Positions 25,151 to 43,980 of a stretch of DNA of 64,000 bases are shown here, piece by piece. Every line of letters starts with the position of its first letter. The stretch's first letter is position 1. The DNA lies in NCBI GenBank assembly GCA_964592785.1, contig CAZQHU010000003.1:3901-67900 (forward strand), given 5' to 3'. Origin of the DNA: an uncultured Gammaproteobacteria bacterium (GTDB lineage: Bacteria > Patescibacteriota > Patescibacteriia > Magasanikbacterales > UBA922). The notes beneath the pieces are model-generated. The model ran no database searches and was not told where the DNA came from. It was given only the letters and a program-made list of their open reading frames with translations. The translations under genes and the position numbers were made by a program.

Positions 25151-25159
25151 ATTACAAAA

Positions 25160-25745: not shown

Positions 25746-25758
25746 TTATAAACTTAGT

Positions 25759-27546: not shown

Positions 27547-27590
27547 AAAATATTTTATTTTTATTTAAATTAAAAAGAAGAAAAAATTTG

Positions 27591-27674: not shown

Positions 27675-27731
27675 TAAGATTATAAATTTCATTTACCCGC
27701 CAAAGCTTTAGCGACGACGGGCCACAAAAGG

Positions 27732-29729
27732 CTATTTCCCAAAATTCCATTGACCGGCAGTTTTGAGATACCAAGAAGTAATGTCAGCAAACCTGTCAGC
27801 TGGCTGTGCAATGCGAGTGACATCCATACCTTTTATGCTGTCGGATAAAGCATAGGTATAAGTCGGAGTGTAGAGAAAAATCGCTGGCAATTCGCTTATC
27901 AAAGTTTCTTGAAATTTTTTATAAAGTTCATTTTTTTCCAACTCATCCATGGTTTCCCGAGCTTTTTGTAAAATAGTGTCAACATTGCGATTGACATAGC
28001 CGGCCAAATTCAAACCCGGATAATCCACTTGGCTAGAATGCCAAAAAGGAAACTGATCCGGATCACTGCCTACTATTTCACCATATAATAAAATATCATA
28101 ATTTCTGGTTCGCAAAACTTCTTTGGTAAAATCCCGAGCTGAAACATAACGCACATTGGCTTTGACACCAATGCCCTGCCAAAAACCAGCCAAGAGCCCG
28201 GCCGCCTGCTTGTACTCTTCTGTACCCACGGTCACCAAATTTACTTCCAAAATTTTTCCTTCTTTATTACGACGATAAAAAGTTTGAGCTTGATTCAATT
28301 CAGCTTCCACTTGAGTTTTAATCTCTTGTCTCACTAAATCTTCCGTGCTTGAGGCCATCTCCCCACTTCCTTGTTCTGGAGTAGTAGTGGCTGTTTCAGG
28401 ATTATTTTTTCGCCATTCTTCAAAAAGTTTCTTTTCCATTTCGATCTGATAGTCACTGGCTGAAATACGTGGCCAGTTTTTATCCAAAAGATTATTAGCC
28501 TCATCCAAATTGTAATTTATTTTACCCAAATTTTCGTCATAAGCAGGAAAACCCGGCAAAACTGGACTATGAATTACCTGCCCTTCACCATTCAAGGCCT
28601 CACGCAAAATTCTATCTTTATCCACTGCCTGGGCCAAAGCCAAACGAACATCCTTGTCTTTCAAAACTTCATTGTTGCGCTGATTGAAAAATAAAGCTGT
28701 ATACTGAGGTAACTGTAAAGTTCGCAAAGCCACATGTTTACGTTCCACCCGTTCACGCAAATTTTTGGGTACAAAACTCAAACTCTGAACTTTGCCTTCT
28801 CTCATGGCCTGCACAGCCCCTGTCTCTCCTTCATAGGCAGAATAAAATTGGAAAATAAATTCTTCAATAAAAGCTGACTGGCGATAAAAACGTTCAAATC
28901 TTTGCAATTCATAGGTATAGATCTTGCCACTGGAATCTTTGGAAAACTTTTTAAACTGAAAAGGTCCGGTGCCAACTGGCTGAATATTGGCTTGAGCCAA
29001 ACGCATTTGTTCAGGAGGAACATTGAACCAAACATGCTCTGGCAAAATACCCACTGTCAAAGACGAAAGAAATGAAGCATAAACTTCGGGGAGTCTAAAA
29101 ACTACAGTATATTCATCTGGTACTTCCACCTCAACTCCTTGAAAACCCAAATACAAAGGACTGGCCGCCAAAACATTTTGAATAGTTTCAACAGTAAATA
29201 ATACATCATTGGCCGTAAAACGCTCCCCATCATGCCAATAAATGTCCTGGCGTAAAACAAAGGTGTAGGTTTTTTTATCATCACTTAAACTATATTTAAC
29301 TGCCAAATCTGGCAACAAACGATTTTTTTTGTCATAACGCATTAACCCTGAAAAAACCAAACGGCTAATATCCGCATCCACTTCATTACTGGCAGCAAAA
29401 ATCGGGTTGATGTACTGGGGACTGCCCACTACCGCCTCGGTCACGATACCACCAACAGTGGGGGCTTCAAGCCGATGAACTCTAACCCAATTGTAACCCG
29501 CCCAAAAAAAACCAAATAAAAAAACTAAAAAACTTATTTTCAAAATCCATTTTTCACGCGGACTCAAAATCCTGGCAATCTGACGCAACTGACAAAAACG
29601 AGGCCAATATCGACCCTGAACCTTTTGTAAAAGTTTGGTATCATAATGATGGGCAACAATCGGCCGTGGATTTTTCCTTTGTTTTTTAATTTTCCATTTG
29701 ACAAACTTGGATCGAAGTAACGATAACAT
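27732..29729 (-). CDS. ABC transporter substrate-binding protein, family 5 (OppA/DppA-like), with an N-terminal membrane anchor
   Basis: SBP_bac_5-like sequence of about 665 aa. Confidence 0.75.
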   Translation of the reverse strand: MLSLLRSKFVKWKIKKQRKNPRPIVAHHYDTKLLQKVQGRYWPRFCQLRQIARILSPREKWILKISFLVFLFGFFWAGYNWVRVHRLEAPTVGGIVTEAVVGSPQYINPIFAASNEVDADISRLVFSGLMRYDKKNRLLPDLAVKYSLSDDKKTYTFVLRQDIYWHDGERFTANDVLFTVETIQNVLAASPLYLGFQGVEVEVPDEYTVVFRLPEVYASFLSSLTVGILPEHVWFNVPPEQMRLAQANIQPVGTGPFQFKKFSKDSSGKIYTYELQRFERFYRQSAFIEEFIFQFYSAYEGETGAVQAMREGKVQSLSFVPKNLRERVERKHVALRTLQLPQYTALFFNQRNNEVLKDKDVRLALAQAVDKDRILREALNGEGQVIHSPVLPGFPAYDENLGKINYNLDEANNLLDKNWPRISASDYQIEMEKKLFEEWRKNNPETATTTPEQGSGEMASSTEDLVRQEIKTQVEAELNQAQTFYRRNKEGKILEVNLVTVGTEEYKQAAGLLAGFWQGIGVKANVRYVSARDFTKEVLRTRNYDILLYGEIVGSDPDQFPFWHSSQVDYPGLNLAGYVNRNVDTILQKARETMDELEKNELYKKFQETLISELPAIFLYTPTYTYALSDSIKGMDVTRIAQPADRFADITSWYLKTAGQWNFGK

Positions 29730-29780
29730 AATAATAACCTTTCCCCACTTGAGGAAAGTAGAAGAAAAACACTGCCTCTA

Positions 29781-29996
29781 TTATATCATTAAATTGGCAA
29801 TAGAAACAGCAAAGAAAAGAATAGAGATAACAATTGTCACTTGAAAAAGCACTTTATCAACTCCACGACGGCTATTATAAACACTGCCACCGCCTCCAAA
29901 GGCACTGCCCAAACCTGAACCACGCTGTTGTAAAAGCACGGCCACGGTCAATAAAATCGCTAAAACTGCCTGTAAAACTGTCAAAACTTTATCCAT
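29781..29996 (-). CDS. secG: Preprotein translocase subunit SecG
   Basis: 71 aa, two TM helices, Gly-rich loop (GSGLGSAFGGGGS). Confidence 0.75.
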   Translation of the reverse strand: MDKVLTVLQAVLAILLTVAVLLQQRGSGLGSAFGGGGSVYNSRRGVDKVLFQVTIVISILFFAVSIANLMI

Positions 29997-30106
29997 AGAT
30001 GTTATTATAATACCCCTCTATTCGAGGTTCTATTAACTGATTTATTTTTTAAGACAAAACAATTATACACCAAGGCCAAAAATAAATCAAGGGGGATACG
30101 CCCCTA

Positions 30107-30135
30107 TTGACAACTTAAGCCACTTTTGCTATAAT
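30107..30135 (+). promoter_or_regulatory. Consensus sigma70 promoter TTGACA-17-TATAAT for rpmE
   Basis: TTGACAacttaagccacttttgcTATAAT lies 25 nt upstream of the ATG. Confidence 0.65.
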
Positions 30136-30159
30136 CACCGCACTTTAATATAAATAAAT

Positions 30160-30438
30160 ATGAGAAAAGACATTCACCCAGAATATTTTGAAAATGCCAA
30201 AGTCACTTGCGCTTGTGGCAACAGTTTTGAAGTTGGCTCCACCAAAAAGGAAATTCGCGTTGAGCTCTGCAATGCCTGCCACCCTTTTTATACCGGCAAG
30301 CAAAAATTTGTAGATACTGCCCGTCGCGTGGAAAAATACAAAGAAAAAATGGATAAAGTTGGCCAAGCAGCTGCTGTACGCAAAGGCAAAAAAGTGAAAA
30401 AAGCTGTGACCAAAGCCAAGAAGACCACCAAAAAATAG
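30160..30438 (+). CDS. rpmE: 50S ribosomal protein L31 with a Lys-rich C-terminal extension
   Basis: MRKDIHPEY...CxxC...CxxC. Confidence 0.85.
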
Positions 30439-30514
30439 CTTTACAAAATAAAAGACAGACTTGGAATTTTCCGGTCTGTTTTTATTTATTTTTTAAACTG
30501 GTATACTTAAATTT

Positions 30515-31573
30515 ATGAATAATAAATACAAGCAAATCAAAGAAAAATATTTAATACTCGAAAAACAACTACAAGACCCAGCTGTGCTTAATGATACACA
30601 AAAATTAAAAAAAACTTCCCAAGAATATGATGATCTAAAAAATACTTATGAAAAAATAGCTATTTTGGAAAATCTTGAAAGAAATCTTGGCGAAGCTGAA
30701 GTCATTGCCAATGACGAAAACAACGAAGAATTGAGACAGCTGGCAGAAATTGAAGTGGAAGAATTGAAAACTAAAAAACAAGAGCTGGAAAAAGAGTTAG
30801 AAGAACTTACTCGTCCTCAAGATCCATTGGATAAAAAAAATGTTATTATAGAAATTCGTGCTGGCGCTGGTGGTGATGAATCGGCTCTCTTTGCTGGTGA
30901 TCTCATGCGTATGTATCTCAAATATGGAGAAGGTAAAGATTGGAAAGCCAGTCTCATTAGTGAAAATCAAATCGGTATTGGCGGTTACAAAGAAGTCATT
31001 TTTTCTTTATCAGGAAAAAATGTTTATCGGGATATGAAATATGAAATGGGTGTGCATCGCGTACAAAGAGTGCCGGAAACTGAAAAATCTGGACGCATCC
31101 ACACTTCCACTGCTTCGGTGGTAGTGCTTCCTGAGATTGATGAGATTGAATTCAAAATCGATCCCAAGGATCTACGCATTGACACTTTCATGGCTGGCGG
31201 ACATGGCGGACAAAGCGTCAATACTACTTATTCAGCAGTCCGCATTACCCATATTCCTACCGGCCTCGTCACTCAATCACAGGATGAAAGATCTCAACTT
31301 CAAAATAAATTAAAAGCCATGAATGTGATGCGCGCCCGACTCTACGAAATGGAGAGAGAAAAGCAAACCGCGGAAATTGATGCCAAACGCAAAAGCCAAA
31401 TCGGCACTGGGGATCGTAGCGAAAAAATCCGCACTTACAACTATCCCCAAGATCGCATCACTGACCATCGCATCCACGAAAGCTGGAATAATATCGGAAC
31501 CATACTAAACGGAAACTTGAATCCAATAATTGATGCACTGAGAAAGGTTGACTATGAAAGACTTGATAGTTAA
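30515..31573 (+). CDS. prfA: Peptide chain release factor 1
   Basis: GGQ motif ([12 protein letters not shown]) and a PxT-type tripeptide region (PET). Confidence 0.9.
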
Positions 31574-31641
31574 AAAGTTCATCAAGTTCATAAAGTCTTT
31601 AAAGTCACCAACTTTATAAACTTTATAACTTTACAAACTTT

Positions 31642-33099
31642 ATGAACTGGTTCAAAAAATATTACCCTCTTCTTATCATTATTCTACTTGGCCTAATACT
31701 CCGTCTTTTTGTAATAATTAAGTATGGTTCATTCTGGGATGACGAAATGTTCAGCTTTGTTTTTAGTCAAAAATCCTGGACAGAAAGTTTTGTTTATTGG
31801 CTCTATGAAACCAACCCGCCTCTGCACTTGTTGTTTTTGAAAATTTGGTTTTATTTTTTACCGGCTAGCGAATTTTTCGCCAGATTACCCAGTCTCTTAT
31901 TTGCTCTCGCCACCATACCTCTCGTCTATTTACTGGGAAAAAATTGGCAAGGAAAAATGACCGGCTATATCACCGCTTTTTATCTAGCTCTTCATCCTTA
32001 CCATATCTTTTGGTCAGCTACTGCCAGGACTTATACCCTAACAATTTTTTTAACTACCGGCGCAGTTTATTTTTTTTATAAAATATTTTTTCTGGAAGAA
32101 AAAAATAGAAAAAATTATTTGGGTCTGGCCATTTTCAACCTACTCTCACTATTATCACACTTATCCGCTAGCTCAATCATACTCACACAAATTTTGTTAT
32201 TGCTCTACAAAAAAACAAATTTCAAACTCTGGTGGCAGATAAATATTACCCCTCTAATTCTCGCTGGCTCTTGGCTAATCTCTTCGCTTTGGTTGAAAAT
32301 GTCTAATCTAAATAAATCGTGGTTTTTCAATTTGAATCATGATCTAGATACATTTCTCACTCCTCTATCTAATATTTTCCTCGGCGTCTACCCACCAAAA
32401 ATGACTTTACTTTTCATTATTCCCCTACTAATTATTTTGTTTATTTTTCTCAGTAAAAAAATTAAAGAAAAAGCAGAAAAAACTTTTGTCATCTTGGCTA
32501 TCGCTCTCCTACCGATGTTTATTTCTTTTTTCTTAAATCTCTGGCATATCAAATTTTTCCTAGTCAGTTTGCCTTTTTGGCTCTTATTGGTAGCTGGAGC
32601 TTTTGCAGAAGTTTTGAAAAACAAAAAATTAATTTTTATAGCCTTGGGATTATTTTGTAGTAGTGGACTTATTTTTTTATGGTCTTTCTTGCCACTGACA
32701 AACTGGCAACCACTGCAAAAATATCTCACTACAAATTTTAATCCAGCCAAAAAACAAGCTCTGGTTTATAACAACTACATATTGGACCCACAAATAGAAA
32801 AGTACTTGAAACCGCCACAAGAAAACATGCCTTTTGTAATAGAATCAGAAAAAAATTGGGAAGATTGGGCAGTAAAAAGAAATTATCTTTATATTAAATA
32901 CTCCCAAGAACAGCTAACAAATTGGCTATCAAAAAATAATTTATTTGCCAATCAAGAAATCTTTCTTATTCAGGGCGAATATGATTACATGACCAATTTA
33001 AATAAATTACTGGAAAAAAATAATTATATTTTAGAGCAACCTGCTTGGCGTTTGCCTATTCTCGGTCGTTATTATCTCTATCACTATGTCAAAAATTGA
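31642..33099 (+). CDS. GT39/GT83-family glycosyltransferase (ArnT/PMT-like), polytopic
   Basis: N-terminal DDE-containing loop, more than 10 TM helices, and the family architecture. Confidence 0.65.
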   Translation: MNWFKKYYPLLIIILLGLILRLFVIIKYGSFWDDEMFSFVFSQKSWTESFVYWLYETNPPLHLLFLKIWFYFLPASEFFARLPSLLFALATIPLVYLLGKNWQGKMTGYITAFYLALHPYHIFWSATARTYTLTIFLTTGAVYFFYKIFFLEEKNRKNYLGLAIFNLLSLLSHLSASSIILTQILLLLYKKTNFKLWWQINITPLILAGSWLISSLWLKMSNLNKSWFFNLNHDLDTFLTPLSNIFLGVYPPKMTLLFIIPLLIILFIFLSKKIKEKAEKTFVILAIALLPMFISFFLNLWHIKFFLVSLPFWLLLVAGAFAEVLKNKKLIFIALGLFCSSGLIFLWSFLPLTNWQPLQKYLTTNFNPAKKQALVYNNYILDPQIEKYLKPPQENMPFVIESEKNWEDWAVKRNYLYIKYSQEQLTNWLSKNNLFANQEIFLIQGEYDYMTNLNKLLEKNNYILEQPAWRLPILGRYYLYHYVKN

Positions 33100-34006
33100 T
33101 CAGCGTGAAATTGAGTTAATTAAAGCATTTGTGTTGAAAAAACCACGCGAATTTTTTATTGCCCACCCGGAGTACCAAGTTAGCAAGTTAGCAAGTGAAC
33201 AAGTGAATAAGTTGATTAAAAAACGTACTCGTGGTATTCCACTCGCTTATTTACTTGGCAAAAAAGAATTTTTTGGGTTGAATTTTACAGTAAATAAAAA
33301 TGTTTTGATTCCTCGCCCAGAGACAGAACTGATGGTAGAAAAAGTTTTACAAAAAATCAAGAATTCAAAAAACCAAGAAATTATTTTAATTGATATTGGA
33401 ACTGGTACTGGATGTATTCCCATTTCAATCATAAAAACAATTAACCCCACCCTACCCTCCCCTACAAGGGGAGGGAAAGGGAGAGGTTTCGCCGTCTTTG
33501 CCACGGACATCTCCCAACCAGCTTTGTCTGTCGCCAAAAAAAACGCCAAAAAACATAATGTAAAAATAAAATTCCTTCACGGCAACTTGCTTGAACCATT
33601 TCTCTGTCATCCTGAATTTATTTCAGGATCTTTCCCAAAATCAAACCTGCTAAAAAGTATATCTGGAGAAAAGATGCTGAAACAAGTTCAGCATGACATC
33701 ATCATCACCGCCAACCTCCCCTATCTTACACCTCAACAACTTAAACAAGAACCCTCAATAAAACACGAACCTCACCTCGCCCTCGTCGCTGGCAAAGATG
33801 GACTAAAATACTACCGAGAACTTCTTAAACAAATTAATATATTGACTTCGGACTACAGACTACAGACTACAGTTTTTTGCGAAATAAATCCGGAACAAAC
33901 AAAAAATATAAAACTCCTTACTAAAAAAATTCTTCCCCAAGCCAAAATAACCCTCCACCAAGATCTGGCTGGAAAAAATAGAGTGGTGGAGATAATTCCC
34001 CTCTAG
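33086..34006 (+). CDS. prmC: Release factor glutamine N5-methyltransferase PrmC/HemK; contains two in-frame palindromic-element insertions
   Basis: SAM motif IDIGTGTG and NLPY (a variant of NPPY). Classic prfA...prmC linkage. Confidence 0.85.
   Translation: MSKIDQREIELIKAFVLKKPREFFIAHPEYQVSKLASEQVNKLIKKRTRGIPLAYLLGKKEFFGLNFTVNKNVLIPRPETELMVEKVLQKIKNSKNQEIILIDIGTGTGCIPISIIKTINPTLPSPTRGGKGRGFAVFATDISQPALSVAKKNAKKHNVKIKFLHGNLLEPFLCHPEFISGSFPKSNLLKSISGEKMLKQVQHDIIITANLPYLTPQQLKQEPSIKHEPHLALVAGKDGLKYYRELLKQINILTSDYRLQTTVFCEINPEQTKNIKLLTKKILPQAKITLHQDLAGKNRVVEIIPL
33606..33698. repeat. Two-hairpin MITE-like element, copy 2; 93 nt, inserted in frame in prmC
   Basis: It encodes LCHPEFISGSFPKSNLLKSISGEKMLKQVQHD between the SAM-binding region and the NLPY motif. 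Confidence 0.75.
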
Positions 34007-34150
34007 AGAGGGGTGCCCGCTCAAGCGGGTGGGGTGTGTTACAATAGCAAAAATTAAAAACAACGGTCACACACCCCGTCTGCCTCCCGCCTGCCATGCC
34101 TGGCACTGGCGGGCAGGGCGAAGGCATACACCCCTCTCCAGAGGGGATCG
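34001..34150. mobile_element. Cargo-less TIR pair (MITE) of the DUF559-element family
   Basis: CCCCTCTAGAGAGGGGTG-hairpin-GGGGTGTGTTAC, an 18-nt spacer, then CGGTCACACACCCC-long hairpin-CACCCCTCTCCAGAGGGG. Confidence 0.6.
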
Positions 34151-34164
34151 CCTCTTGACAAACC

Positions 34165-34193
34165 CATAAAAATAAGCTATAATGCCCTGTTCT
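34165..34193 (+). promoter_or_regulatory. Consensus promoter TTGACA-17-TATAAT of cassette d
   Basis: TTGACAaacccataaaaataagcTATAAT. Confidence 0.65.
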
Positions 34194-34393
34194 TTGAAAA
34201 TTTTCAAACGGCTTATAAATTAGCCAATTTTTGACTAATGTCTAGGCCGTTTGAGGCTTAGGGAACAGAAAAACTACTGTTGAAGGAGTGGCCTGTATAG
34301 GGGGCAACTACCGAGACCTTTTTGAAGGTCATTACAGCAAGTTTCTGTTTTCCCGACTTCCTGTTCCGCCCGAGGCGGACAAGAGGAGGTACC

Positions 34394-35161
34394 ATGCCCA
34401 GTTTCTCCAACAAGTTCCTGAAAGTGGAGAGCGACCGCTCTCCGGTGGGACAGCGGACCCGTCTGCTGGTCCTCTGGTCATACTTCATGGCCATTCTCCT
34501 GGGTGGCCTGTGGCTGATGCCCAGCTCGATGGCAGTGGCGAACCTGATCCTGATGGGTTTGAACACCCTCATCTTCGCCCGCTGGGTGTCCAAGAATGGG
34601 GTGGATTACTACCCCAAGAAGGAAAACAGAAAATACCCCCCGTTTCTTCCGAGATGGGGAGAGGGTACGCGTCGGTACTACTTCGTACCGGCGATCATGA
34701 CCAGCACGATCTGGTCGGCAGTGTTTTTCGGCTGGAACACCTGGTTCAGCGAAAACTTGTTGTGGATTGTTTTGGGTGTTATGTGCATCCTTCTCGCCAT
34801 CTTTCTGGTCCCCTACCTGTGGGGTAAGAGGGCATCCAGGAAAAGCAAGAGATTCATGGCCCAGCAAGACGAGGAGAGACGAAAGCAGAAGGAGATCGAC
34901 GAGCTGATTCAAGCGGCGATGGGAAGGAAGGAACTCGAGATTTACGAGAGGGAGAAAGAGTTCCTTCGTGACCTGGCAGTAATCATCGCCAACTTCCACT
35001 ACGAAAAGGGAAGAAAGCCCTCGAAGAGGGACGCCGAACTCCGGCAGAAACTCGAGGCGATCCTCGAGTACTTCGTCGGCCCGAGCGAGGCCGAGGCCAT
35101 GGTCGCCGAGGAGCTCTACCGCCTCACTCGTGAGGCGAAGAAGGCCACGGTGGCCACTTAG
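34394..35161 (+). CDS. GC-rich (about 57%) membrane protein of 255 aa: about 4 TM helices plus a charged coiled-coil C-terminus (cassette d)
   Basis: GAGGAGG lies 5 nt upstream of ATG 34394. The overlapping track ORFs 34258-34999 on other frames are GC artefacts. gttcgttcttt follows the stop. Confidence 0.6.
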   Translation: MPSFSNKFLKVESDRSPVGQRTRLLVLWSYFMAILLGGLWLMPSSMAVANLILMGLNTLIFARWVSKNGVDYYPKKENRKYPPFLPRWGEGTRRYYFVPAIMTSTIWSAVFFGWNTWFSENLLWIVLGVMCILLAIFLVPYLWGKRASRKSKRFMAQQDEERRKQKEIDELIQAAMGRKELEIYEREKEFLRDLAVIIANFHYEKGRKPSKRDAELRQKLEAILEYFVGPSEAEAMVAEELYRLTREAKKATVAT

Positions 35162-35180
35162 ACACTGTTCGTTCTTTAGA

Positions 35181-35232
35181 GGGGCGCCGACCGGTTGAGT
35201 TGAGATTTACTTCTCCTCCCGGTCGGCGCCCC
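35181..35232 (+). repeat. Conserved 3' hairpin of cassette d (14-bp stem GGGGCGCCGACCGG / CCGGTCGGCGCCCC)
   Basis: Cassette e carries GTCCGACCGG/CCGGTCGGAC, a compensatory variant, and shares the loop start ttgagtt. Confidence 0.7.
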
Positions 35233-35239
35233 GATGTAA

Positions 35240-35306
35240 TCAAGTGTTTGTAAAATATTTTGTAAATAGTTGAAAATAAAAAATCCGCTGATAAGGCGGT
35301 TTTTTT
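35240..35306 (+). repeat. Conserved cassette 3' module, copy B, plus terminator
   Basis: tcaagtgtttgtaaaatattttgtaaatagttgaaaataaaaaat-CCGCTGataaGGCGG-ttttttt. Confidence 0.8.
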
Positions 35307-35341
35307 GTTTGTCATCCCTTTTGTAAAAGGTAAGATGGGTA

Positions 35342-35370
35342 TTGACAAAAACACAAAAATAAGCCAATAT
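35342..35370 (+). promoter_or_regulatory. Promoter TTGACA-17-CAATAT of cassette e
   Basis: Shares the spacer motif aaaataagc with the promoter at 34165. Confidence 0.55.
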
Positions 35371-35408
35371 TGTTATAGGAAATTCGTCATCTACAGGAGG
35401 TTTTCTCA

Positions 35409-35747
35409 ATGGCAAATAATTATCACTTGTCTGGTCCTTTTTCCTTCGGTATCCTATCTCCAAAGAACAAGGAGGAAAAGTACAGTATTTTCTTCCTGTC
35501 AATTCTTAGGGGCGACGAAGTGCACCGAGCCTATCTCTGCTACTCCAAGCAACAAGTTCGAAACGTGTTTGACCAGTTCAGACCTTGTATTGCACCAGAC
35601 GAACTCAAGATAGCGGAAGATTTCGTAACCCATAACCAGCACGTACCCGAATTCTCGAACCACAAGATGAGGGAATACAACGGACGAGAGGCCGAAGTGT
35701 TCACCGCGCTCATGTCCACTGGGCACTACGCAAGCATTGCCAACTGA
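35409..35747 (+). CDS. GC-rich small protein of 112 aa (cassette e)
   Basis: AGGAGG lies 8 nt upstream of the ATG. A tttcgttctttag motif and a hairpin follow the stop. Confidence 0.55.
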   Translation: MANNYHLSGPFSFGILSPKNKEEKYSIFFLSILRGDEVHRAYLCYSKQQVRNVFDQFRPCIAPDELKIAEDFVTHNQHVPEFSNHKMREYNGREAEVFTALMSTGHYASIAN

Positions 35748-35792
35748 CCATCCGCCCGAGTCAGGGCAAACCAAATTGTTTCGTTCTTTAGC

Positions 35793-35841
35793 GGGTCCGA
35801 CCGGTTGAGTTAATGCCTCCTTGGCATTCTCCCGGTCGGAC
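35793..35841 (+). repeat. Conserved 3' hairpin of cassette e
   Basis: GTCCGACCGG-ttgagtt...-CCGGTCGGAC. Confidence 0.65.
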
Positions 35842-35847
35842 AATCCA

Positions 35848-35925
35848 ATCAAATGTTTGTAAAAATTATTTTGTAAATAGTTGAGAATAAAAAATCACTT
35901 AATAATCTAAGTGATTTTTTATTTT
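35848..35925 (+). repeat. Conserved cassette 3' module, copy C, plus terminator
   Basis: atcaaatgtttgtaaaaattattttgtaaatagttgagaataaaaaat-CACTTaataatctAAGTG-tttttt. Confidence 0.8.
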
Positions 35926-36172
35926 TTAGAACGACAATTGGCTGGGGTTTGGGGCCGCCAACCTGTTTGAGCTAGAAGTGCTTGATGGATATGTATATTA
36001 TTAGTATGGCGAGTCTTGGCGGCCCCAAAACTTTTTTGTTACTTTTTTGGTTACAAAAAAGTAAAGAGTGATTATTTTGTCATAAACTTCGGCAAACTCT
36101 CCTGGCCTACGGGCCACCCTCTCTTGGAAAGAGAGGGATGACAAACATCCACCTATATTTTTATTTTTTGTT

Positions 36173-36577
36173 TCACTGTCTCCTCCACCACAACCCAACA
36201 CAAAACAACACTGCGCCGGTAAGACCATTTGCCAAATCTGCCATAGTGTCTAGTGCTCCTGCTTGATAACGCCAGCCTTGAAAAAGTAAATCATGATAAA
36301 ATTCATATACTTCCCAAACGACAGCAGCAAAACAAGCAAAACCAACCAATAAAAAATACTTAAGCCAAACAGGTTTGAATTCTGCTTTTATATATTTCAA
36401 AAATAAATAAGCGGTCCAAGCAGCCACCAGTCCTCCAATAATATGAAATGGCAAATCTACCCAAGGAAAATTTTCTACAAAAAAATCTTTAAAAAATCTG
36501 AACAAAAATTCATTGAGCAAAAACACCACCCACATTGGTGAGGTGATACGAAAAAATGTTTTTAAAAATTTATTCAT
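36173..36577 (-). CDS. Small polytopic membrane protein (VanZ-like?)
   Basis: ORF track. Start trimmed to MNKF to limit overlap with the upstream gene. Confidence 0.45.
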   Translation of the reverse strand: MNKFLKTFFRITSPMWVVFLLNEFLFRFFKDFFVENFPWVDLPFHIIGGLVAAWTAYLFLKYIKAEFKPVWLKYFLLVGFACFAAVVWEVYEFYHDLLFQGWRYQAGALDTMADLANGLTGAVLFCVGLWWRRQ

Positions 36578-37664
36578 AATTAATTTTGGTATTTTGATTT
36601 GCCACTTCAATCCAAATCTTACCTGGATTAAAAATTATTTCTTCACCATTGACCCCATAAAAACGCGTTCGACCTACCCTATCTTTCTTCACCCAAGTAC
36701 CAGTATAATCCAAACCATTTTGAAAAACTACTGCCTCGCCAGAACCAATAGTTTCCATACCCAGTCTCCCAATACTATCCAAAATTTCAGTTTCAACCTT
36801 TTGGACTATCACCACATCGGCCGCGATCGACATACCATCGGCATCCACATGCGGACGACCCATCTGATAACGTTCATATTTATTGGTGGAAGTATTGTAT
36901 TTCCACACTGCTTCATACACTGGCGGAAGAAATGAGACAGTTAGACTACCAACAATTTCGGAATTTCCTAATTTCTCAATTTCTTCTTTTGTAGTTGTCA
37001 CAAATTTCCAGCTTTTATATTCATCATTCAAATAATTTTCTGAATAACTATTCAAGGCTCTACTACCCAACTCGCTAGAAGTATAAACATTATGCGGAGC
37101 GCTTCTTTCCTGCGCTCGCCAATAATATTGCCCATTATAAAATTCATTTAGATCATTTATTTTATATTTTTTAATCAAATCCAAAGCCTCTGGTGAACCA
37201 CCGACATGCATATAAACCGGTGTACCATATTCTGAAAGCCAATCTAGATAATAAGACCGGGCACTACGCACTGGGCCGATCTTTCCAACTTCCGAGTCAG
37301 CTGGATAAATCGCCAAAAATCTAGTATAGTTGGCTTCTACCGGCGCTTCATAAACAACACTGGCTTTGGATAAGCCCGCCTGCGGACGTGCTTCACTATG
37401 GTTTTCTATCATCACCGCCAAAAGCCGAGGATTCATTTGATCGGACTCTTCCACACAAACTCCATCCAAAAAACGACGAAATTCGCAATCTTTTTGTTCT
37501 TCCAAATTTGACAAATCCACCAAGGCAATTCTATCAATCTTATCAGTGAAATATTGCCAACCAAACCAGACCAATAAAAATAGTCCTACCAAAAAAACCA
37601 ACCCTGCCAAAAGATAGACAAATTGTGCTTGAGTAAATTTAAATTTTTTGAAATTATTCTTCAT
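36570..37664 (-). CDS. DUF3048-domain lipoprotein-like protein (YerB-like)
   Basis: VMIENHSEARPQAGLSKASVVYEAPVE block characteristic of the DUF3048 N-terminal domain, plus an N-terminal TM segment. Confidence 0.65.
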   Translation of the reverse strand: MKNNFKKFKFTQAQFVYLLAGLVFLVGLFLLVWFGWQYFTDKIDRIALVDLSNLEEQKDCEFRRFLDGVCVEESDQMNPRLLAVMIENHSEARPQAGLSKASVVYEAPVEANYTRFLAIYPADSEVGKIGPVRSARSYYLDWLSEYGTPVYMHVGGSPEALDLIKKYKINDLNEFYNGQYYWRAQERSAPHNVYTSSELGSRALNSYSENYLNDEYKSWKFVTTTKEEIEKLGNSEIVGSLTVSFLPPVYEAVWKYNTSTNKYERYQMGRPHVDADGMSIAADVVIVQKVETEILDSIGRLGMETIGSGEAVVFQNGLDYTGTWVKKDRVGRTRFYGVNGEEIIFNPGKIWIEVANQNTKINYE

Positions 37665-37700
37665 AACTTTGACATCATACTACAAAAAAATCAAAAAATC

Positions 37701-37733
37701 AAAAACCGCCCCGCAATATGCGGGGCTGTTTTT
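37701..37733. terminator. Bidirectional terminator
   Basis: aaaaaccGCCCCGCaatatGCGGGGCtgttttt. Confidence 0.6.
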
Positions 37734-37806
37734 GACTGTCCCCGACTGTTCGGTGCGACAGTCGGGATCTCCTTGCTTGTTTGCCCTGAGACGGGCAGAG
37801 AGAACC

Positions 37807-38319
37807 CTAGTTCCAAAGACGCTGAAGCCCTGTGGCTTCCTGTCGCACGATTCCCAAAGCGACAACAGCATCCTTGATGTAGACAGCGATGAGCTGAGAC
37901 AATTCCATCCAAAAGATCCCGGAGTGAATCATGCTGTATTGCATGTTCTTCTTTTCCCTCAGGAATCCTTGGCTCAGCCAATCGGGAAAGTCTATTCCGT
38001 ACAAACTCTCGTCAACAATGAACGAAAGAAACACTGCGAAATAGTCCTCCAAGAGAACGAAACGATCCCTTGGAAAAAACAAATCTGTCAGTTCACGAAT
38101 CCTCTGCTGTTGAACTTGCGGTGCCCGAACAATATCCTTGGGATGACTGGGGAAACCCCAAGTCTGCAAAAGAGGCGCAATCACTCGATGTCCGGGAAAT
38201 TCCAAAAAGGCACGACCCTCCCTTACAAAACCTCCGAAAATCAAACGCCCGGTGACTTGGATTTGTAACTCCCTGTCTCTGTCAGTAACCAAAGAATAAT
38301 CCACCATTTCTCCCTCCAT
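37807..38319 (-). CDS. GC-richer (about 50%) hypothetical protein of 170 aa (cassette f); the overlapping plus-strand 206-aa ORF is the alternative
   Basis: A TTGACA-17-TAAGCT promoter (38344-38372) lies immediately upstream on the minus strand. A stem-loop and the terminator at 37701-37733 lie downstream. Confidence 0.4.
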   Translation of the reverse strand: MEGEMVDYSLVTDRDRELQIQVTGRLIFGGFVREGRAFLEFPGHRVIAPLLQTWGFPSHPKDIVRAPQVQQQRIRELTDLFFPRDRFVLLEDYFAVFLSFIVDESLYGIDFPDWLSQGFLREKKNMQYSMIHSGIFWMELSQLIAVYIKDAVVALGIVRQEATGLQRLWN

Positions 38320-38382
38320 CTTGCTAACAAGCTGTCAGAGACAAGCTTAACAAAAGCATTCTTGACTGTCAATAATTACACA

Positions 38383-38416
38383 TAAAAAAATACCCTCTGG
38401 ATTTTGGGGGTATTTT
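38383..38416 (-). terminator. rplY terminator
   Basis: Minus strand: a hairpin TACCC...GGGTA followed by TTTTTTT. Confidence 0.5.
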
Positions 38417-38431
38417 TTCAATAAAGTTTTA

Positions 38432-39103
38432 TTAATCTTTCTTTTCTTCAGTTTTCTCGCCTTCACCTTCAGTTTCTTCTTTTCCTTTCTTCTCCACTTC
38501 GATCTGGTCAATAGCTGGAGCAGCTGCTTCTTCCATAGCCTTGAGTTCATCCTCACTAAGTGGAGCAGCCACTTTGACAATAACTTGTCCAGCATCCTCA
38601 TTGGCAATAATACCAGCTGGCAATGACAAATCTTTCACATGAATAACTTTTTCAAAAGTATCCAAAACACCCAAATCAATATCAATTTCATTGACCAAAT
38701 CTTTTGGCAAACATTTGATATCTAGAGTATCTTGAGCTTTTACCAAAGTACCACCAAGGGCTTTGACAGCTGGGGCTTCGCCTACAAAATTCAATTTCAC
38801 TGTAGCTTCCATTTCTTTATTCATATTGATCTGACGAAAATCTACATGAGTGACTACGCCCTTGACTGGATCATGTTGTAAATCCTGAATCAACACCTTG
38901 AGCGGAGCACCGCCATCTATACTTAAATCAATAATACTAGCTTCACCAGCTTCATTATAAAGTTTCAAAAACTCATTATAATCAAAAGCCAAAGAAACCG
39001 GTTCCAAACCTGGTCCATAGAGCACACCGGGCAATTGACTTTGGGCACGCAAATCGGCCGCCTGTCCGGCAGTTCTCTTTTTAACAGAAAAACTAAGAGT
39101 CAT
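38432..39103 (-). CDS. rplY: 50S ribosomal protein L25 / general stress protein Ctc
   Basis: Two-domain L25/Ctc sequence with an acidic tail. Confidence 0.85.
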   Translation of the reverse strand: MTLSFSVKKRTAGQAADLRAQSQLPGVLYGPGLEPVSLAFDYNEFLKLYNEAGEASIIDLSIDGGAPLKVLIQDLQHDPVKGVVTHVDFRQINMNKEMEATVKLNFVGEAPAVKALGGTLVKAQDTLDIKCLPKDLVNEIDIDLGVLDTFEKVIHVKDLSLPAGIIANEDAGQVIVKVAAPLSEDELKAMEEAAAPAIDQIEVEKKGKEETEGEGEKTEEKKD

Positions 39104-39106
39104 AAA

Positions 39107-39433
39107 TTAATATTTAAAATTAAATTGATTAGTTTTTAAAAATTGATGAAAATTAAGCAACTCTTCTTCACTCACCGGTCCCCTAGCCAACAACCTCTTG
39201 GCGTCGGCAAAATCCAAATCTGTAAGCATACCAACTGAACTGGCTCCAAAAGGTGTGGAAACCATCAATGCCACCACTGCATGCCGACAACTGCCACAAA
39301 ACAAATGCAATAAACTGGCGCTTTCCTTTTCTTCCAAAACTCGGGACTGCTCCTTGGTATATTGATTTTGACAAACCGGACAATGTTGCAAAGAACGAAG
39401 ATTGTCGGGAAAAGAATTTTCTAATTTAGACAT
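39107..39433 (-). CDS. Zinc-ribbon hypothetical protein (CPVC...CGSC)
   Basis: ORF track. Confidence 0.45.
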   Translation of the reverse strand: MSKLENSFPDNLRSLQHCPVCQNQYTKEQSRVLEEKESASLLHLFCGSCRHAVVALMVSTPFGASSVGMLTDLDFADAKRLLARGPVSEEELLNFHQFLKTNQFNFKY

Positions 39434-39497
39434 AAAATTATTCTGTCCCCGCGTTAACCTGCGGTGGACATTACTCTACCATTATTATAAAAAAAAG

Positions 39498-40622
39498 TCA
39501 AGACTCATACAACTCGTGTTTGGCAATAGTGCCACTTTGCGCCACACTTTCCACCATACCCAACAATAATAAGTTGATAATCAACGAAGAGCCACCATAA
39601 CTCAAAAATGGCAAAGTCACCCCAACTACTGGCATGAAACCCATGGCTGCTCCCAAATTGATGACAATTTGTGTAAGAAATAATAACAAAACCCCGGATA
39701 CCAAAAAAGCAGAAAAATCATTTTTGGCCCGCCGAATAATAGTGATCAAACGCCATAAAAATAAAAAATATAATAAAAGCACCAAACCACCACCCACAAA
39801 CCCCAACTCTTCAGCAATCACTGAAAAAATAAAATCTGTTTGTGCCTCTGGTAAAAAATGTAGTTGTGATTGGGAACCAAAACCCAAACCGCGCCCAACA
39901 ATCTGTCCAGAGCCAATGGCAATCATTGATTGAGTCACATTGTAGCCCGAACCCAAAGGATCCAATTCCGGATTGATAAAAGTCAAAATTCTGCCTCGCT
40001 GATAATCTTGAAAAAGAAAAAACCAAGCAAAAATCACCATCAATACCGCCAAAATTACCAAAGCAAAAATATAACGTTTTTTAGTTCCTGAAAGACATAA
40101 AATTCCAAACCAAATGGCGCTCAAAACAATGGCTGAACCCAGATCTGGTTGCAATAAAATCAAACCAGCCAAAAATAAAGTAACCAAAGCACTGGTAAAA
40201 ACAAACTGCCATTTTTCAAAACGTCGACCAAATCTCTCCAACCACCAGGCAAGCATAATAATAAGACCAACTTTGGCAAATTCAGCTGGTTGAAAAGAAA
40301 AACCAAAAAAATGAAACCAGCCGCGAGTGCCACGAATTGTTTCCCCAAAAATTAAAACTCCCAACAAAAGTAAAAATGCCAACAAATAAAAAAACTTGGC
40401 CTTTTGACGATAAAAACTTACATGAAAAAAACTGGCAAACAAAAAAAACACCAGACCAATGACAACCGCACTGCTCTGGGTGGAAAAATAATCAAGTTCT
40501 GCACCTCGGGATAAATCTACACTGTAAATCGCTACCAAACTTATGGCCACCAAACCCGCCACCAATAATACTAAAATCCAATCAAAATTACGCGCCAATT
40601 GTTTGAATCTAGACAAATCCAT
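39498..40622 (-). CDS. ftsW: SEDS-family peptidoglycan glycosyltransferase (FtsW/RodA)
   Basis: About 10 TM helices and conserved SEDS blocks. Start could alternatively be at 40667. Confidence 0.8.
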   Translation of the reverse strand: MDLSRFKQLARNFDWILVLLVAGLVAISLVAIYSVDLSRGAELDYFSTQSSAVVIGLVFFLFASFFHVSFYRQKAKFFYLLAFLLLLGVLIFGETIRGTRGWFHFFGFSFQPAEFAKVGLIIMLAWWLERFGRRFEKWQFVFTSALVTLFLAGLILLQPDLGSAIVLSAIWFGILCLSGTKKRYIFALVILAVLMVIFAWFFLFQDYQRGRILTFINPELDPLGSGYNVTQSMIAIGSGQIVGRGLGFGSQSQLHFLPEAQTDFIFSVIAEELGFVGGGLVLLLYFLFLWRLITIIRRAKNDFSAFLVSGVLLLFLTQIVINLGAAMGFMPVVGVTLPFLSYGGSSLIINLLLLGMVESVAQSGTIAKHELYES

Positions 40623-40629
40623 AAAAACC

Positions 40630-41556
40630 TTACCTTTCTCCTGCCCGCAAATACTCCCTGGAATCAAAGATATTTATAAGTGGATGCACTCTAATTTCCG
40701 TCACATAAAGACCATCAATATAAGAACGCAAATCCACATGGCGAGTCTCCCGAGAAGTAAATTCTGCCTCTGGTAAATAGAGAATGCCCACTCGACTGCC
40801 CTGGTCCAAAAGCTCTACATAAAAATTGGCTTCCCAAAAACCATAAGCAGAATTATTGGTCAGGTCAAATTCAATAAAATTGGCTGGACTACCACTAATG
40901 CGACTGATGGGAGAAAATTCAAAATTTTCTACTAGCCAAAGATTACGTTCTGCTGTGTAGCCCGAAATATCCGGGTAAATATGACGATCCAAATGATACC
41001 ACTTGATATTTTTGATAACCAATCTGGCTCCACTGGGAAAATAATCACTGGTAAAACCCAAATAAACCAGCGGTCGCGTGCCTGGTAAAACAATTGCCTG
41101 CGCCAAAGGGGTTTCTCCACCGCTAAAAACAAACTGATATTGAATGCCAGCAAGCCAGCGTTCATTATTATTAGTCAAATCCACAACAAAATCATAACTA
41201 GATGGGCTTACTGTTTGGTAAACCTGAGGACTGCTAATGATAAATGGACGAGGCGCGTAAAAACTTTTTAAATTGTCATAATTTTCTATTTCCAAAACCT
41301 GACTATTCAACATCTCTTGGTCTCGCCAATAGCCGGTCGTAAAATAATACCCCCAATAAAATAAACTATAACCAACCGTAACGACACAAAACAAAATCAA
41401 AGCCCCCAAACCTATCTGACGCAAACGCAGTTTATGCTCCACATACCAACGGGACAACTTAAACTGACTATTGGTAAACTCCCCAGTAGGATCAATATAT
41501 TTTTCCAATTTATCTTCGGTTTTTTTGATAAACATATTATCAATATTATACAACAA
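40630..41556 (-). CDS. Membrane-anchored hypothetical protein
   Basis: ORF track; one TM segment after a charged N-terminus. Confidence 0.45.
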   Translation of the reverse strand: MLYNIDNMFIKKTEDKLEKYIDPTGEFTNSQFKLSRWYVEHKLRLRQIGLGALILFCVVTVGYSLFYWGYYFTTGYWRDQEMLNSQVLEIENYDNLKSFYAPRPFIISSPQVYQTVSPSSYDFVVDLTNNNERWLAGIQYQFVFSGGETPLAQAIVLPGTRPLVYLGFTSDYFPSGARLVIKNIKWYHLDRHIYPDISGYTAERNLWLVENFEFSPISRISGSPANFIEFDLTNNSAYGFWEANFYVELLDQGSRVGILYLPEAEFTSRETRHVDLRSYIDGLYVTEIRVHPLINIFDSREYLRAGER

Positions 41557-41620
41557 ATCAAAAAATAATTAAACAGCCAATCATTGTTTCCCTATTGCTT
41601 TATCTACTCAAAAATGATAA

Positions 41621-43906
<2,286 letters not shown>

Positions 43907-43980
43907 CAGCTTGTCCGACGCAACGAAGTAAAGCCGGATGAAAAATCTGGATATATAAAAATAAAAAATAGATATATATA

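Follow-up and report, generated by a model that had tools for sequence, protein, structure and literature searches.

Small GC-rich orphan genes, each with its own promoter, are set into the tiny, AT-rich genome of a groundwater member of the Candidatus Magasanikbacteria (CPR), and our preferred reading, which we hold at a probability of about 0.5, is that they are self-contained accessory-gene cassettes, comparable to phage morons, that use a common RNA-level chassis and are exchanged by recombination. Two such units adjoin each other between PrmC and DUF2238 in the 64-kb stretch of DNA that we analysed (the window). Each consists of a GC-rich ORF with a consensus promoter and a strong ribosome-binding site; past its stop codon come the motif TTCGTTCTTTAG, a GC hairpin, an AT-rich module of 45 nt and a terminator (Table 1). 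All the features that an initial annotation of this DNA listed for the tandem pair are present in the sequence, and the ORFs are GC-rich as it stated, with corrected figures: 56% for the first (not 57%), 47% for the second (not 50%) and 38.9% for the window (not 35%). The units are also dispersed, as it had proposed, with a third copy of the module and further GC-rich units elsewhere in the window. The chassis does not extend to every unit: the P4 unit, the slot-C unit and the mini-cassette have no 45-nt module.

Table 1. Positions of the cassettes and their associated elements in the window
Feature	Position	Strand	Description
Mini-cassette	9424-9740	+	Promoter, 45-aa GC-rich ORF (9481-9618), CCGTTCTTTCC, hairpin, terminator
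Third cassette	25235-25745	+	Promoter 25235-25263, 88-aa ORF 25335-25601, hairpin type B 25650-25675, module 25679-25722, terminator to ~25745
REP-like composite palindrome, left of island	33997-34147	.	TCCCCTCTAGAGAGGGGTG ... CACCCCTCTCCAGAGGGGA; overlaps PrmC stop; 19-nt arms, 95% complementary
Cassette 1 promoter, TTGACA-17-TATAAT	34155-34183	+	Predicted; 12/12 consensus positions
Cassette 1 structured 5' leader	34184-34393	+	Begins GTTCTTTGAAAATTTTCAAAC; SD AGGAGG pairs with ACUUCCU
ORF P1, 255 aa	34394-35161	+	3-4 TM segments, charged helical tail; GC3-rich orphan
Cassette 1 post-stop motif TTCGTTCTTTAG	35168-35179	+	Sequence match
Cassette 1 hairpin 1, type A	35181-35232	+	Perfect 14-bp GC stem; loop UUGAGUU...CUCCUCC
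Cassette 1 45-nt module	35240-35284	+	AU-rich hairpin 2 (35240-35273, G·U pairs) and A-tract
Cassette 1 intrinsic terminator	35285-35306	+	Predicted; stem covaries with L001 copy and across all copies (helix 2)
Cassette 2 promoter, TTGACA-(17)-CAATAT or 18-AATATT	35342-35371	+	Predicted; consensus match
ORF P2, 112 aa	35409-35747	+	Soluble; complete orphan
Cassette 2 small hairpin and post-stop motif	35754-35791	+	GCCCGAGUCAGGGC, then AAAC, then TTCGTTCTTTAG (35780-35791)
Cassette 2 hairpin 1, type A	35795-35841	+	10-bp stem; CCUCCU in loop
Cassette 2 module copy and terminator	35849-35923	+	Module 35849-35895; predicted palindromic bidirectional terminator 35886-35923, arms 16 nt, 100% complementary
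Structured element 3' of cassette 2	35935-36070	.	Long GC hairpin and AT hairpin
REP-like palindrome, right of island	36110-36147	.	Inverted repeat with 34005-34019
Slot-C GC-rich cassette	37690-38372	-	170-aa ORF 37807-38319; promoter at 38372
P4 unit	44152-45171	-	GC-rich orphan ORF P4, 284 aa, 44152-45006; own promoter-like site; between gyrB and secE

The promoters of cassettes 1 and 2 have a 23-nt block in common (87% identity), and AGGAGG stands before both ATGs, the Shine-Dalgarno site annotated for each gene. Both promoters contain the spacer aaaataagc that the annotation took for a conserved signature; this spacer is close to the host's own strong-promoter consensus (gaaaataaga for secE at 45175, taaaatatga at 60739), which makes the promoter similarity largely generic. 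The leader of cassette 1 is predicted to fold strongly (MFE -75.7 kcal/mol, z = -3.78), and over its last 100 nt it is 99% identical to a related contig, L001, though the CDS has a dS of 0.275. The post-stop motif occurs in both cassettes as annotated, and related motifs lie past the stops of other cassettes, at 9623 in the window and in relatives L003, L007 and L008; GTTCTTT is missing from several cassettes. With one mismatch allowed, the 10-mer CGTTCTTTAG alone is not enriched (4 found against 3.94 expected), and it is its position and recurrence in relatives that make it meaningful. The GCCC-N6-GGGC-AAA hairpin of cassette 2 is likewise found past the stop codons of the slot-C cassette and of cassettes in L002, L003 and L007.

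The ORFs depart from host genes in base composition and codon usage, the deviation that the annotation had proposed checking. Their GC3 is 0.58–0.78 in the window (P1 0.78, with GC1 and GC2 of 0.51 and 0.39; P2 0.58; the third-cassette ORF 0.60; P4 0.68) and up to 0.88 in relatives, against 0.32–0.38 for host genes. This skew, together with dN/dS values of 0.36 (P1 against L001) and 0.41, indicates at the sequence level that the cassette ORFs are real genes. Codon usage is common to cassette genes of five contigs (r ~0.7–0.8 for most; weaker for P2, P3 and the slot-C ORF of the window, at 0.24–0.34), and none of them correlates well with host genes (-0.28 to 0.31; ~0 when pooled).

The annotation concluded that no known family fits, and neither a protein nor an RNA family was matched. 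None of 13 cassette proteins had a Pfam or PADLOC match, and large protein databases returned for P1, P2 and P4 only the proteins themselves or one close relative, none outside the lineage: P1 has just 2 matches among 5.8 billion proteins (and no Pfam, PHROG or PADLOC match), P2 matches only itself and P4 only itself among 1.84 billion representatives. The same 5.8 billion proteins include no donor homologues for the GC-rich DNA. For P1, described earlier as a 4-TM protein with a coiled-coil tail, simple hydropathy gives 3–4 hydrophobic segments, and charged residues make up 43% of the 108-aa tail; the AF2 model of P2 is unusable (pLDDT 44). Against Rfam 15, only a tRNA-Leu passes the gathering score in the window, and relaxed scans of 33900-36250 and 24100-25800 gave only sub-threshold, terminator-like matches.

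In the chassis downstream of the ORFs, a GC-rich hairpin of type A or B comes first, followed in fixed order by an AU-rich hairpin held partly by G·U pairs (hairpin 2), an A-tract and a variable, predicted intrinsic (bidirectional) terminator. The cassette 3' UTR is predicted to fold with z = -7.8. The near-identical 45-nt module reported for the pair is present in both cassettes and, as was to be checked, elsewhere in the window and in relatives; a 26-mer from it has 3 matches in the window against 0.00 expected. A covariance model likewise finds just three strong matches in the 64 kb, all 3' of GC-rich ORFs, and the host-gene terminators of the window lack hairpin 2. All module copies in relatives follow GC-rich ORFs in the orientation of the ORF, and 189 kb of related DNA contain no standalone module without such an ORF upstream. 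The search also recovered divergent analogues in L009 and L012 (E ~3e-4), both after GC-rich ORFs, and had no match on L010, a contig without GC-rich genes. Four copies of hairpin 2 have a stem that is lengthened apically, at the loop, by 34 nt.

As RNA, hairpin 2 reaches -5 to -9 kcal/mol on the sense strand (-7.2 for the cassette 1 copy) and 0.0 on the antisense strand, so that only the sense strand folds, and with DNA parameters the values are -2.2 to -3.7 against -0.3 to -0.8 kcal/mol. Given this sense-only fold through G·U pairs, the module resembles an RNA element and not a folded single-stranded DNA recombination site; in the folding models it looks like a 3'-UTR hairpin plus the A-tract of a bidirectional terminator. 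Compensatory changes affect 7 of 9 stem pairs in the L009 and L012 copies, a covariation that rests on two divergent, model-aligned sequences because the close copies are nearly invariant. Hairpin type B (in the third cassette and relatives) has three compensatory pairs, conserved bulges and 100% of cells paired. For type A, whose loops both begin TTGAGTT, the compensation claimed for the tandem pair amounts to 2 pairs in 2 sequences and depends on the alignment. Stem covariation, and with it the proposal of selected non-coding structures common to the units, is better supported by hairpin B and the divergent hairpin 2 copies than by type A. The UTRs are ~99–100% identical to those of L001 where synonymous sites differ by 23%.

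Cassettes are replaced between strains that are ~99.5% identical, which bears out the variability predicted earlier for this locus. A related contig, L008, is 99.4–99.7% identical to window positions 24233-33585 and 38348-44329. Its PrmC-DUF2238 slot (slot B) has a homologous promoter (~86%; 86.5% in the comparison with cassette 1), an identical hairpin A and an identical module; between them lies an unrelated 300-aa ORF, and cassette 2 is missing. The non-homologous segment starts ~20 nt past the -10 box and ends 4–6 nt past the stop, with GTTCTTT at both edges. Slot C (37798-38348) is swapped in L008 for an unrelated 137-aa ORF within flanks that are ~100% identical; here the segment starts upstream of the -10 box, and its junctions lie at TTGACAGT and at the GCCCGTCTCAGGGC (GCCC) hairpin. 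Relatives further removed have these slots empty or filled with other genes, and in L010 secE directly follows gyrB, leaving the P4 slot empty. The window matches L001 or L008 in a mosaic of identity levels, which indicates frequent recombination.

We suggest that the cassettes are lodged at a small number of permissive intergenic sites in the chromosome, each unit being made up of a host-type sigma-70 promoter, a leader (in cassette 1 strongly folded, with the Shine-Dalgarno site predicted to be occluded), a GC3-rich, lineage-restricted ORF and the common 3' chassis. The chassis would most likely act at the RNA level, setting and protecting the 3' end of the transcript, and may insulate neighbouring essential operons against read-through; the level of translation would be set by the leader and possibly by the anti-SD-like hairpin loops. 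Because chassis and promoter are the sole sequences common to unrelated cassettes, within a conserved backbone, we propose that cassettes are replaced, added or lost through homologous recombination, with DNA from another strain probably taken up first, a route that would require no dedicated site-specific recombinase. Homologous recombination alone gives no account of how unrelated ORFs first joined the same promoter and 3' chassis.

An unlikely alternative is that nothing systematic is at work and that these are ordinary horizontally acquired islets whose signals converged on the host consensus, with UTRs that arose by local duplication or gene conversion and serve termination only. The nearly generic promoter block and the unenriched 10-mer fit this account, nothing sets the A-tract and terminator apart from a normal bidirectional terminator, and frequent recombination, as seen in the mosaic, could alone keep the UTRs identical. 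It is hard to reconcile with the recurrence of the same hairpins 1 and 2, across loci and genomes, behind unrelated ORFs, with a fold kept in divergent copies through compensatory changes, with the confinement of hairpin 2 to GC-rich ORFs in the window, and with UTRs so much better conserved than synonymous sites.

That the non-homologous segments end at short motifs (GTTCTTT in slot B; TTGACAGT and the GCCC hairpin in slot C) could, going by sequence, reflect a site-specific or RNA-mediated process. A dedicated exchange system, functionally analogous to an integron, would make of the promoter and three hairpins an 'expression socket' into which ORFs from a GC-rich pool circulating in the lineage are loaded at GTTCTTT and GCCC-N6-GGGC by a recombinase, a nuclease or an RNA-templated step. 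We regard such a system as doubtful. Neither the window nor the syntenic contigs yielded anything that demonstrates dedicated machinery for swapping, an integron for example: the 30 window ORFs include no integrase, transposase or reverse transcriptase, and the precomputed Pfam lists of L008, L010 and L012 (~9–10 kb on each side of PrmC) contain no mobility genes; neither set includes a PF00589-type protein.

The initial annotation had compared the units to integron cassettes. An attC site is an imperfect palindrome 3' of an ORF, with R'' (RYYYAAC) and R' (GTTRRRY) feet and extrahelical bases, that acts as folded bottom-strand single-stranded DNA, and a complete integron has an IntI tyrosine recombinase with attI and Pc nearby and promoterless cassettes. 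As in integron cassettes or CALIN, the ORFs are small and mostly orphan, have an element of conserved structure behind them, can stand in tandem (here with similar structured ends 611 nt apart) and vary between near-identical strains. An integron-like site-specific system in which the 3' hairpins are attC-like folded-DNA sites and the recombinase is encoded elsewhere would also fit the GTT-containing motif (GTTCTTT) on each side of the slot-B segment, the two bulged bases that hairpin B retains while its stem covaries, and the match of GTTGAGT in the hairpin A loop to GTTRRRY. Reading the sequence at the hairpin feet, we found no attC boxes and no RYYYAAC/GTTRRRY pair; the hairpin A stem is perfect (10–14 bp), lacks the extrahelical architecture and is flanked by CTTTAG and GATGTAA; and hairpin 2, which is conserved more than any other element, needs its G·U pairs and forms in the sense orientation alone. 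Each unit brings a promoter and a terminator of its own, units stand singly at dispersed loci, and no tyrosine recombinase (IntI included) is found in the window or ~9–10 kb around PrmC in relatives. The analogy therefore describes modular, variable and dispersed units well and their mechanism poorly, and we consider an integron-like system quite unlikely.

REP-like palindromes bracket the tandem pair, and there are 5 occurrences of CCCTCT..AGAGGG where 0.02 would be expected. The structured element 3' of cassette 2 (z = -3.8 on the plus strand, -4.4 on the minus strand) is 97% identical in L008 and is also present past the L002/L006 cassette, at a different locus. A palindromic element is inserted in frame within PrmC, and a MITE-like insert of 85 nt lies inside the L002 terminator, with its reverse complement after PrmC in L009. 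REP/BIME and other 3'-UTR stem-loop repeats stabilise upstream mRNA, and the cassette hairpins are like them in being stable, placed between stop codon and terminator, and repeated at several loci; they are unlike them in their low copy number, their tie to one gene class and an arrangement in which three hairpins keep their order. We saw no transposase of the RAYT type, and the REP-like palindromes nearby are separate. The 3' module, possibly with the promoter, might itself be a non-autonomous MITE/REP-type element that supplies terminator and promoter, its association with GC-rich genes being secondary. The abundance of palindromes in the region, the inserts in PrmC, L002 and L009 and the 34-nt insert at the apex of some hairpin 2 copies would suit this idea. 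We judge it improbable: the module has neither terminal inverted repeats nor a target-site duplication, is always oriented with an upstream GC-rich ORF, and is accompanied by the GC-rich hairpin 1 and the post-stop motif.

RNA-mediated capture, in which transcripts running from GUUCUUU near +1 to the 3' GUUCUUU/hairpin are copied to DNA and recombined into a resident chassis, would account for a fixed promoter and 3' chassis around a changing transcribed middle and would suit the GTTCTTT at both slot-B edges, the RNA-like chassis and the bAvd-like protein encoded at 7463-7915, and is most improbable given the lack of a reverse transcriptase in the window or syntenic contigs, the start of the slot-C segment upstream of the -10 box and the cassettes without GTTCTTT. 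A diversity-generating retroelement target was rejected: P1 and its L001 counterpart differ by a 3-nt indel and by all substitution types, no reverse transcriptase is among the 30 window ORFs, and the bAvd-like gene lies 27 kb away.

The reading that we prefer, accessory-gene cassettes on a common chassis, finds its closest parallels in two known systems. Phage morons are reportedly autonomous promoter-gene-terminator units of atypical base composition that lie between conserved prophage genes. Like them, cassettes 1–3 hold one gene or a gene pair with its own predicted promoter and intrinsic terminator, deviate in GC3 from host genes and are uncorrelated with them in codon usage, and are inserted between conserved genes, present or absent among close relatives. 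Unlike morons, they sit in a backbone of housekeeping chromosome (PrmC, DUF2238/DUF3048, RNase J, gyrB, secE) and not of prophage, and they have a conserved, structured 3'-UTR chassis, with different genes swapping in one frame; we found no significant PHROG match (best E = 0.006) and no phage DNA match. Replacement flexible genomic islands resemble the cassettes in having ~99.4–100% identical flanks around unrelated inserts, as at slots B and C, and different genes in the same slots across the lineage. The cassettes differ from such islands in their tiny scale (0.5–2 kb, one or two genes), in belonging to one compositional class of GC-rich orphans and in the conserved promoter and UTR arms inside the island.

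CPR bacteria have tiny, streamlined genomes, and the routes by which they acquire and trial new genes are poorly understood. Here, small slots in a housekeeping backbone hold a compositionally distinct pool of orphan genes that differs between ~99.5% identical strains. A dedicated exchange mechanism, should one exist, would make this a cassette system of a new kind; if there is none, the locus is still a clean micro-scale example of a replacement island, with UTRs conserved far beyond the genes they flank. If the chassis is functional, it would equip an uncultivated phylum with a natural plug-and-play module for gene expression and provide a marker for the accessory genes, several of them encoding membrane proteins, that are the likeliest to mediate host or phage interactions.

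Direct reading of positions 33600-36600 reveals two neighbouring units in which promoter, Shine-Dalgarno site (SD), ORF, post-stop motif, hairpin, AT-rich 3' module and terminator occur together, as the initial annotation had described. Its GC contrast stands at corrected values: the ORFs have 56% and 47% GC (not 57% and 50%) and the window 38.9% (not 35%). The post-stop motif is present, but its 10-mer CGTTCTTTAG alone is not enriched at one mismatch. Similarly, the two promoters do share a spacer, but not a distinctive one, as it is near the host's ordinary pattern TTGACAAA...AAAATA(A/T)G(A/C)-TATAAT seen at secE (45175), 60739, 19627 and 17280. Three matches to a module 26-mer lie in the window (0.00 expected), the third of them (25697-25722) 3' of another GC-rich ORF. 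Separately, a mini-cassette at 9424-9740 comprises a promoter, a 45-aa GC-rich ORF (9481-9618), post-stop CCGTTCTTTCC, a hairpin and a terminator.

Features of the two adjacent cassettes, in window coordinates
Cassette	Feature	Position
1	Promoter TTGACA-17-TATAAT	34155-34183
1	Leader, 210 nt, then AGGAGG	upstream of ORF 34394-35161
1	ORF P1, 255 aa	34394-35161
1	Post-stop motif TTCGTTCTTTAG	35168-35179
1	Hairpin, perfect 14-bp stem	35181-35232
1	AT-rich module	35240-35284
1	Terminator	35285-35306
2	Promoter	35342-35371
2	ORF P2, 112 aa, preceded by AGGAGG	35409-35747
2	Small hairpin GCCCGAGTCAGGGC	35754-35767
2	Post-stop motif TTCGTTCTTTAG	35780-35791
2	Hairpin, 10 bp; inner stem and loop start as in cassette 1	35795-35841
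2	Module	35849-35895
2	Palindromic terminator	end at 35923

The cassette ORFs are real, moderately constrained protein genes that form one distinct compositional class, as judged by GC3, dN/dS and codon correlations. GC by codon position in P1 is 0.51/0.39/0.78; GC3 is 0.58 in P2, 0.60 in an 88-aa ORF, 0.68 in the 284-aa ORF P4 (44152-45006(-)) and up to 0.80-0.88 in related cassettes, compared with 0.32-0.38 in five host genes. P1 and its 84%-identical relative give a dN/dS of 0.36, and a second cassette family gives 0.41 (0.17 for the backbone gene DUF2238). Together with the GC3 periodicity, these values rule out a non-coding RNA as the source of the GC-rich stretch. Codon usage across cassette genes of five contigs correlates at r ~0.7-0.8 for most, more weakly (0.24-0.34) for P2, P3 and the window ORF of slot C (37798-38348), and poorly with host genes throughout (-0.28 to 0.31), bearing out the deviant composition originally reported. 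P1 has a single relative among 5.8 billion proteins; P2 has none in a large protein-database search and P4 none among 1.84 billion representatives (full HMMER). None of 13 cassette proteins has a match in Pfam or PADLOC, a PHROGs search was likewise empty, and Rfam offers no family for the RNA, in agreement with the earlier statement that no known family fits. Single-sequence AF2 models were unusable (pLDDT 44 and 35). Hydropathy of P1 indicates three to four membrane segments, where four had been claimed, and a tail of 108 aa with 43% charged residues, where a coiled coil had been proposed.

The 3' hairpins of the cassettes are specific to the sense strand and covary. The module folds as hairpin 2, UCAAGUGUUUGUAAA / UUUGUAAAUAGUUGA; the A-tract GARAAUAAAAAAU, part of a bidirectional terminator, comes next. 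Hairpin 2 contains G·U pairs and folds on the sense strand only, with energies of -5 to -9 kcal/mol for sense RNA versus 0.0 for antisense. Structured RNAs vary by apical stem extension, and copies from four relatives (L001, L003, L007 and L008) carry a 34-nt extra stem exactly at the hairpin 2 apex. The cassette 1 3' UTR as a whole forms three hairpins (z = -7.8), and terminator stems differ between copies by compensatory changes. The stem covariation first proposed for hairpin 1, the GC-rich stem, is alignment-dependent in the type A form of cassettes 1 and 2, where two pairs differ beside a common 8-bp core (G:C to T:A, C:G to G:C) in two sequences only; it is better supported in the type B form (window 25650-25675, L002, L003 and L007), where three pairs are compensatory, two bulges are conserved and 100% of cells are paired. 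Type A loops hold CUCCUCC or CCUCCU and type B loops GGAGG; the type A loops are anti-SD-like, a resemblance to which we attach little weight. The leader of cassette 1 also folds strongly (z = -3.8), with its SD paired. A known RNA family is ruled out, as gathering-score and relaxed Rfam scans gave only tRNA-Leu and terminator-like noise, and ARAGORN found no tmRNA.

A covariance model (CM) trained on seven module copies recovered only the three known copies from the 64-kb window. Its matches in 189 kb of related DNA lie only 3' of GC-rich ORFs and include divergent copies in L009 and L012 (E ~3e-4), which keep hairpin 2 with both-side changes in seven of nine pairs, in an alignment of few sequences fitted to the CM. 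There was no match in L010, a relative without GC-rich genes. The module thus recurs elsewhere in the window and in relatives, in line with the dispersal initially suggested. Of 185,579 species-representative genomes, only Candidatus Magasanikbacteria GW2011_GWC2_37_14 contains its exact 24-mer, which is also present in five metagenome contigs; three of these carry the same cassette as that genome. Just upstream of the module in every real match is an ORF of 58-64% GC: the L006 cassette, adjoining IS30 remnants, encodes a 352-aa soluble protein, L003 encodes a 67%-identical relative of it, and L007 has a two-ORF unit 3' of gyrA. The match in L005, an unrelated 43%-GC contig where it adjoins a transposase-like ORF (called by eye), is without hairpin context (CM E = 2.9) and was taken as chance.

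PrmC homologues place the organism in Magasanikbacteria and also supplied syntenic contigs. Comparison with these reveals that, in near-identical strains, the coding part has been replaced while the non-coding arms around it are conserved. Contig L008 is 99.4-99.7% identical to the window over 24233-33585 and 38348-44329. In its slot B, the PrmC-DUF2238 intergenic site that houses cassettes 1 and 2 in the window, the promoter is homologous (86%) and the leader differs; then come a 300-aa membrane ORF (X) unrelated to P1, a 32-aa peptide, and a 3' end in which a hairpin A matching that in cassette 1 exactly is joined by a long-form module and a terminator. The slot closes with sequence found 3' of cassette 2 in the window, cassette 2 itself being absent. 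P1 and X are alike in gross layout, each with a membrane domain and a charged tail, but the comparisons gave no support for their descent as diverged homologues (tblastn E = 0.09; hhalign probability <1%). GTTCTTT motifs near +1 and 3' of the stop codon mark the limits of the non-homologous segment. Slot C is also replaced (a 170-aa ORF in the window versus a 137-aa ORF in L008) between flanks that are ~100% identical, with junctions at TTGACAGT (-35 box) and at the GCCCGTCTCAGGGC hairpin. Among relatives at greater distance, these slots are either vacant or filled by different genes. A GC-rich ORF of 68 aa occurs in L009; L012 carries two GC-rich ORFs (127 and 516 aa) together with an AT-rich P63C gene; and in L010 there is an AT-rich DUF559 gene, while the gyrB-secE slot, home of P4 in the window, is empty. 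P1 and L001 share an identical run of 280 nt within a gene whose dS is 0.275, and a 94% identity block stands next to 99.7% blocks in the window-L008 comparison; this mosaic pattern is consistent with frequent recombination.

Further small elements were noted, some of them differing between these strains or recurring among them. An extra GC-rich ~122 nt lies inside the tRNA-Leu gene of L008 (3419-3542) and is absent at window 27651 (gene 27590-27674). Window positions 17391-18070 contain an ORF of 171 aa with moderately raised GC, followed by three clustered C-tract palindromes, a cluster that in L008 lies instead upstream of the slot B cassette promoter (86% identity). An in-frame insertion in PrmC/HemK at 33585-33698, absent from the 99.5%-identical L008, contains a palindromic element (ctgtcatcctgaatttatttcaggatc) of which further copies lie at 9745 and in the leader of the L008 cassette; the element is similar to the Rickettsia palindromic elements, which insert into coding genes. 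An 85-nt MITE-like insert within a cassette terminator stem of L002 (6897-6985) recurs reverse-complemented in L009 (4375-4475), directly 3' of PrmC. The 136 nt at 35935-36070, 3' of the cassette 2 terminator, are strongly structured on both strands (z ~-3.8 to -4.4) without an Rfam match, and a homologous copy lies at another locus, 3' of the unrelated L002/L006 cassette. A 60% GC, hairpin-rich non-coding stretch without an Rfam match (24850-25140) separates the terminator of a Trp-repressor-like gene from the third cassette (ORF at 25335-25601). At 24190-24440(-), a GC-rich unit has a promoter-like site and a terminator within its leader; GTTCGTTCTTTAT, GGAGG and an ORF of 26 aa come next, and a G-rich hairpin with poly-A closes the unit, for which an attenuator-controlled micro-ORF and a small RNA are both conceivable. 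The gene at 7463-7915(-), flanked by Sua5 and a second release factor, probably RF-2 (PCRF/RF-1 domains), encodes a 23S-rRNA-IVP/bAvd-like four-helix protein; its vicinity has no reverse transcriptase, and in L010 a similar gene lies between nusG and rplK.

We interpret these units as most likely autonomous accessory-gene cassettes on a common RNA-level chassis, the shared 3' order of hairpin 1, hairpin 2, A-tract and terminator. The chassis would define and protect the transcript 3' end and may insulate adjoining operons, translation could be gated by the leader, and strains would exchange cassettes when the conserved arms and backbone recombine homologously. We leave some room for a dedicated cassette-loading mechanism because unrelated ORFs occupy the same frame, the edges are bounded by motifs and the GC-rich pool is without homologues, but we consider it unlikely. 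Among known systems, replacement-type flexible islands have the pattern observed here, at an unusually small scale. Phage morons are likewise autonomous promoter-gene-terminator units of atypical composition, but the cassettes here sit in a housekeeping chromosome and show no similarity to phage. The integron analogy drawn initially captures the behaviour, namely small orphan ORFs each with a conserved-structure element 3' and content that varies by strain, but not membership or the likely mechanism, since every defining feature that could be tested differs. Unlike REP/MITE elements, the module never occurs on its own; palindromes of REP-like type, separate from it, flank the cassette island, and the same ones recur around a DUF559 (Vsr-like endonuclease) gene. 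That gene (16791-17174(-), within 16743-17213) is bracketed by palindromes CCCTCTAGAGAGGG and CCCTCTCTAGAGGG and is possibly a small selfish element; in L010 the PrmC-DUF3048 slot houses a DUF559 gene. A phage or plasmid origin has no support, with no DNA match in phage or plasmid collections and no relative of the module or the cassette proteins in IMG/VR. Hypervariation by a DGR is ruled out by an indel and by the lack of a reverse transcriptase among 30 window ORFs, and an assembly chimera by the presence of the same cassettes in assemblies from independent sources (NCBI, Logan and JGI).

The overall description in the initial annotation was largely correct, and the finding is genuine and unusual. 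Literature searches turned up general reports of horizontal gene transfer in Patescibacteria and none on this cassette architecture. We regard the units as moron-like autonomous cassettes that reside in micro-scale replacement islands and share a conserved, structured UTR chassis.
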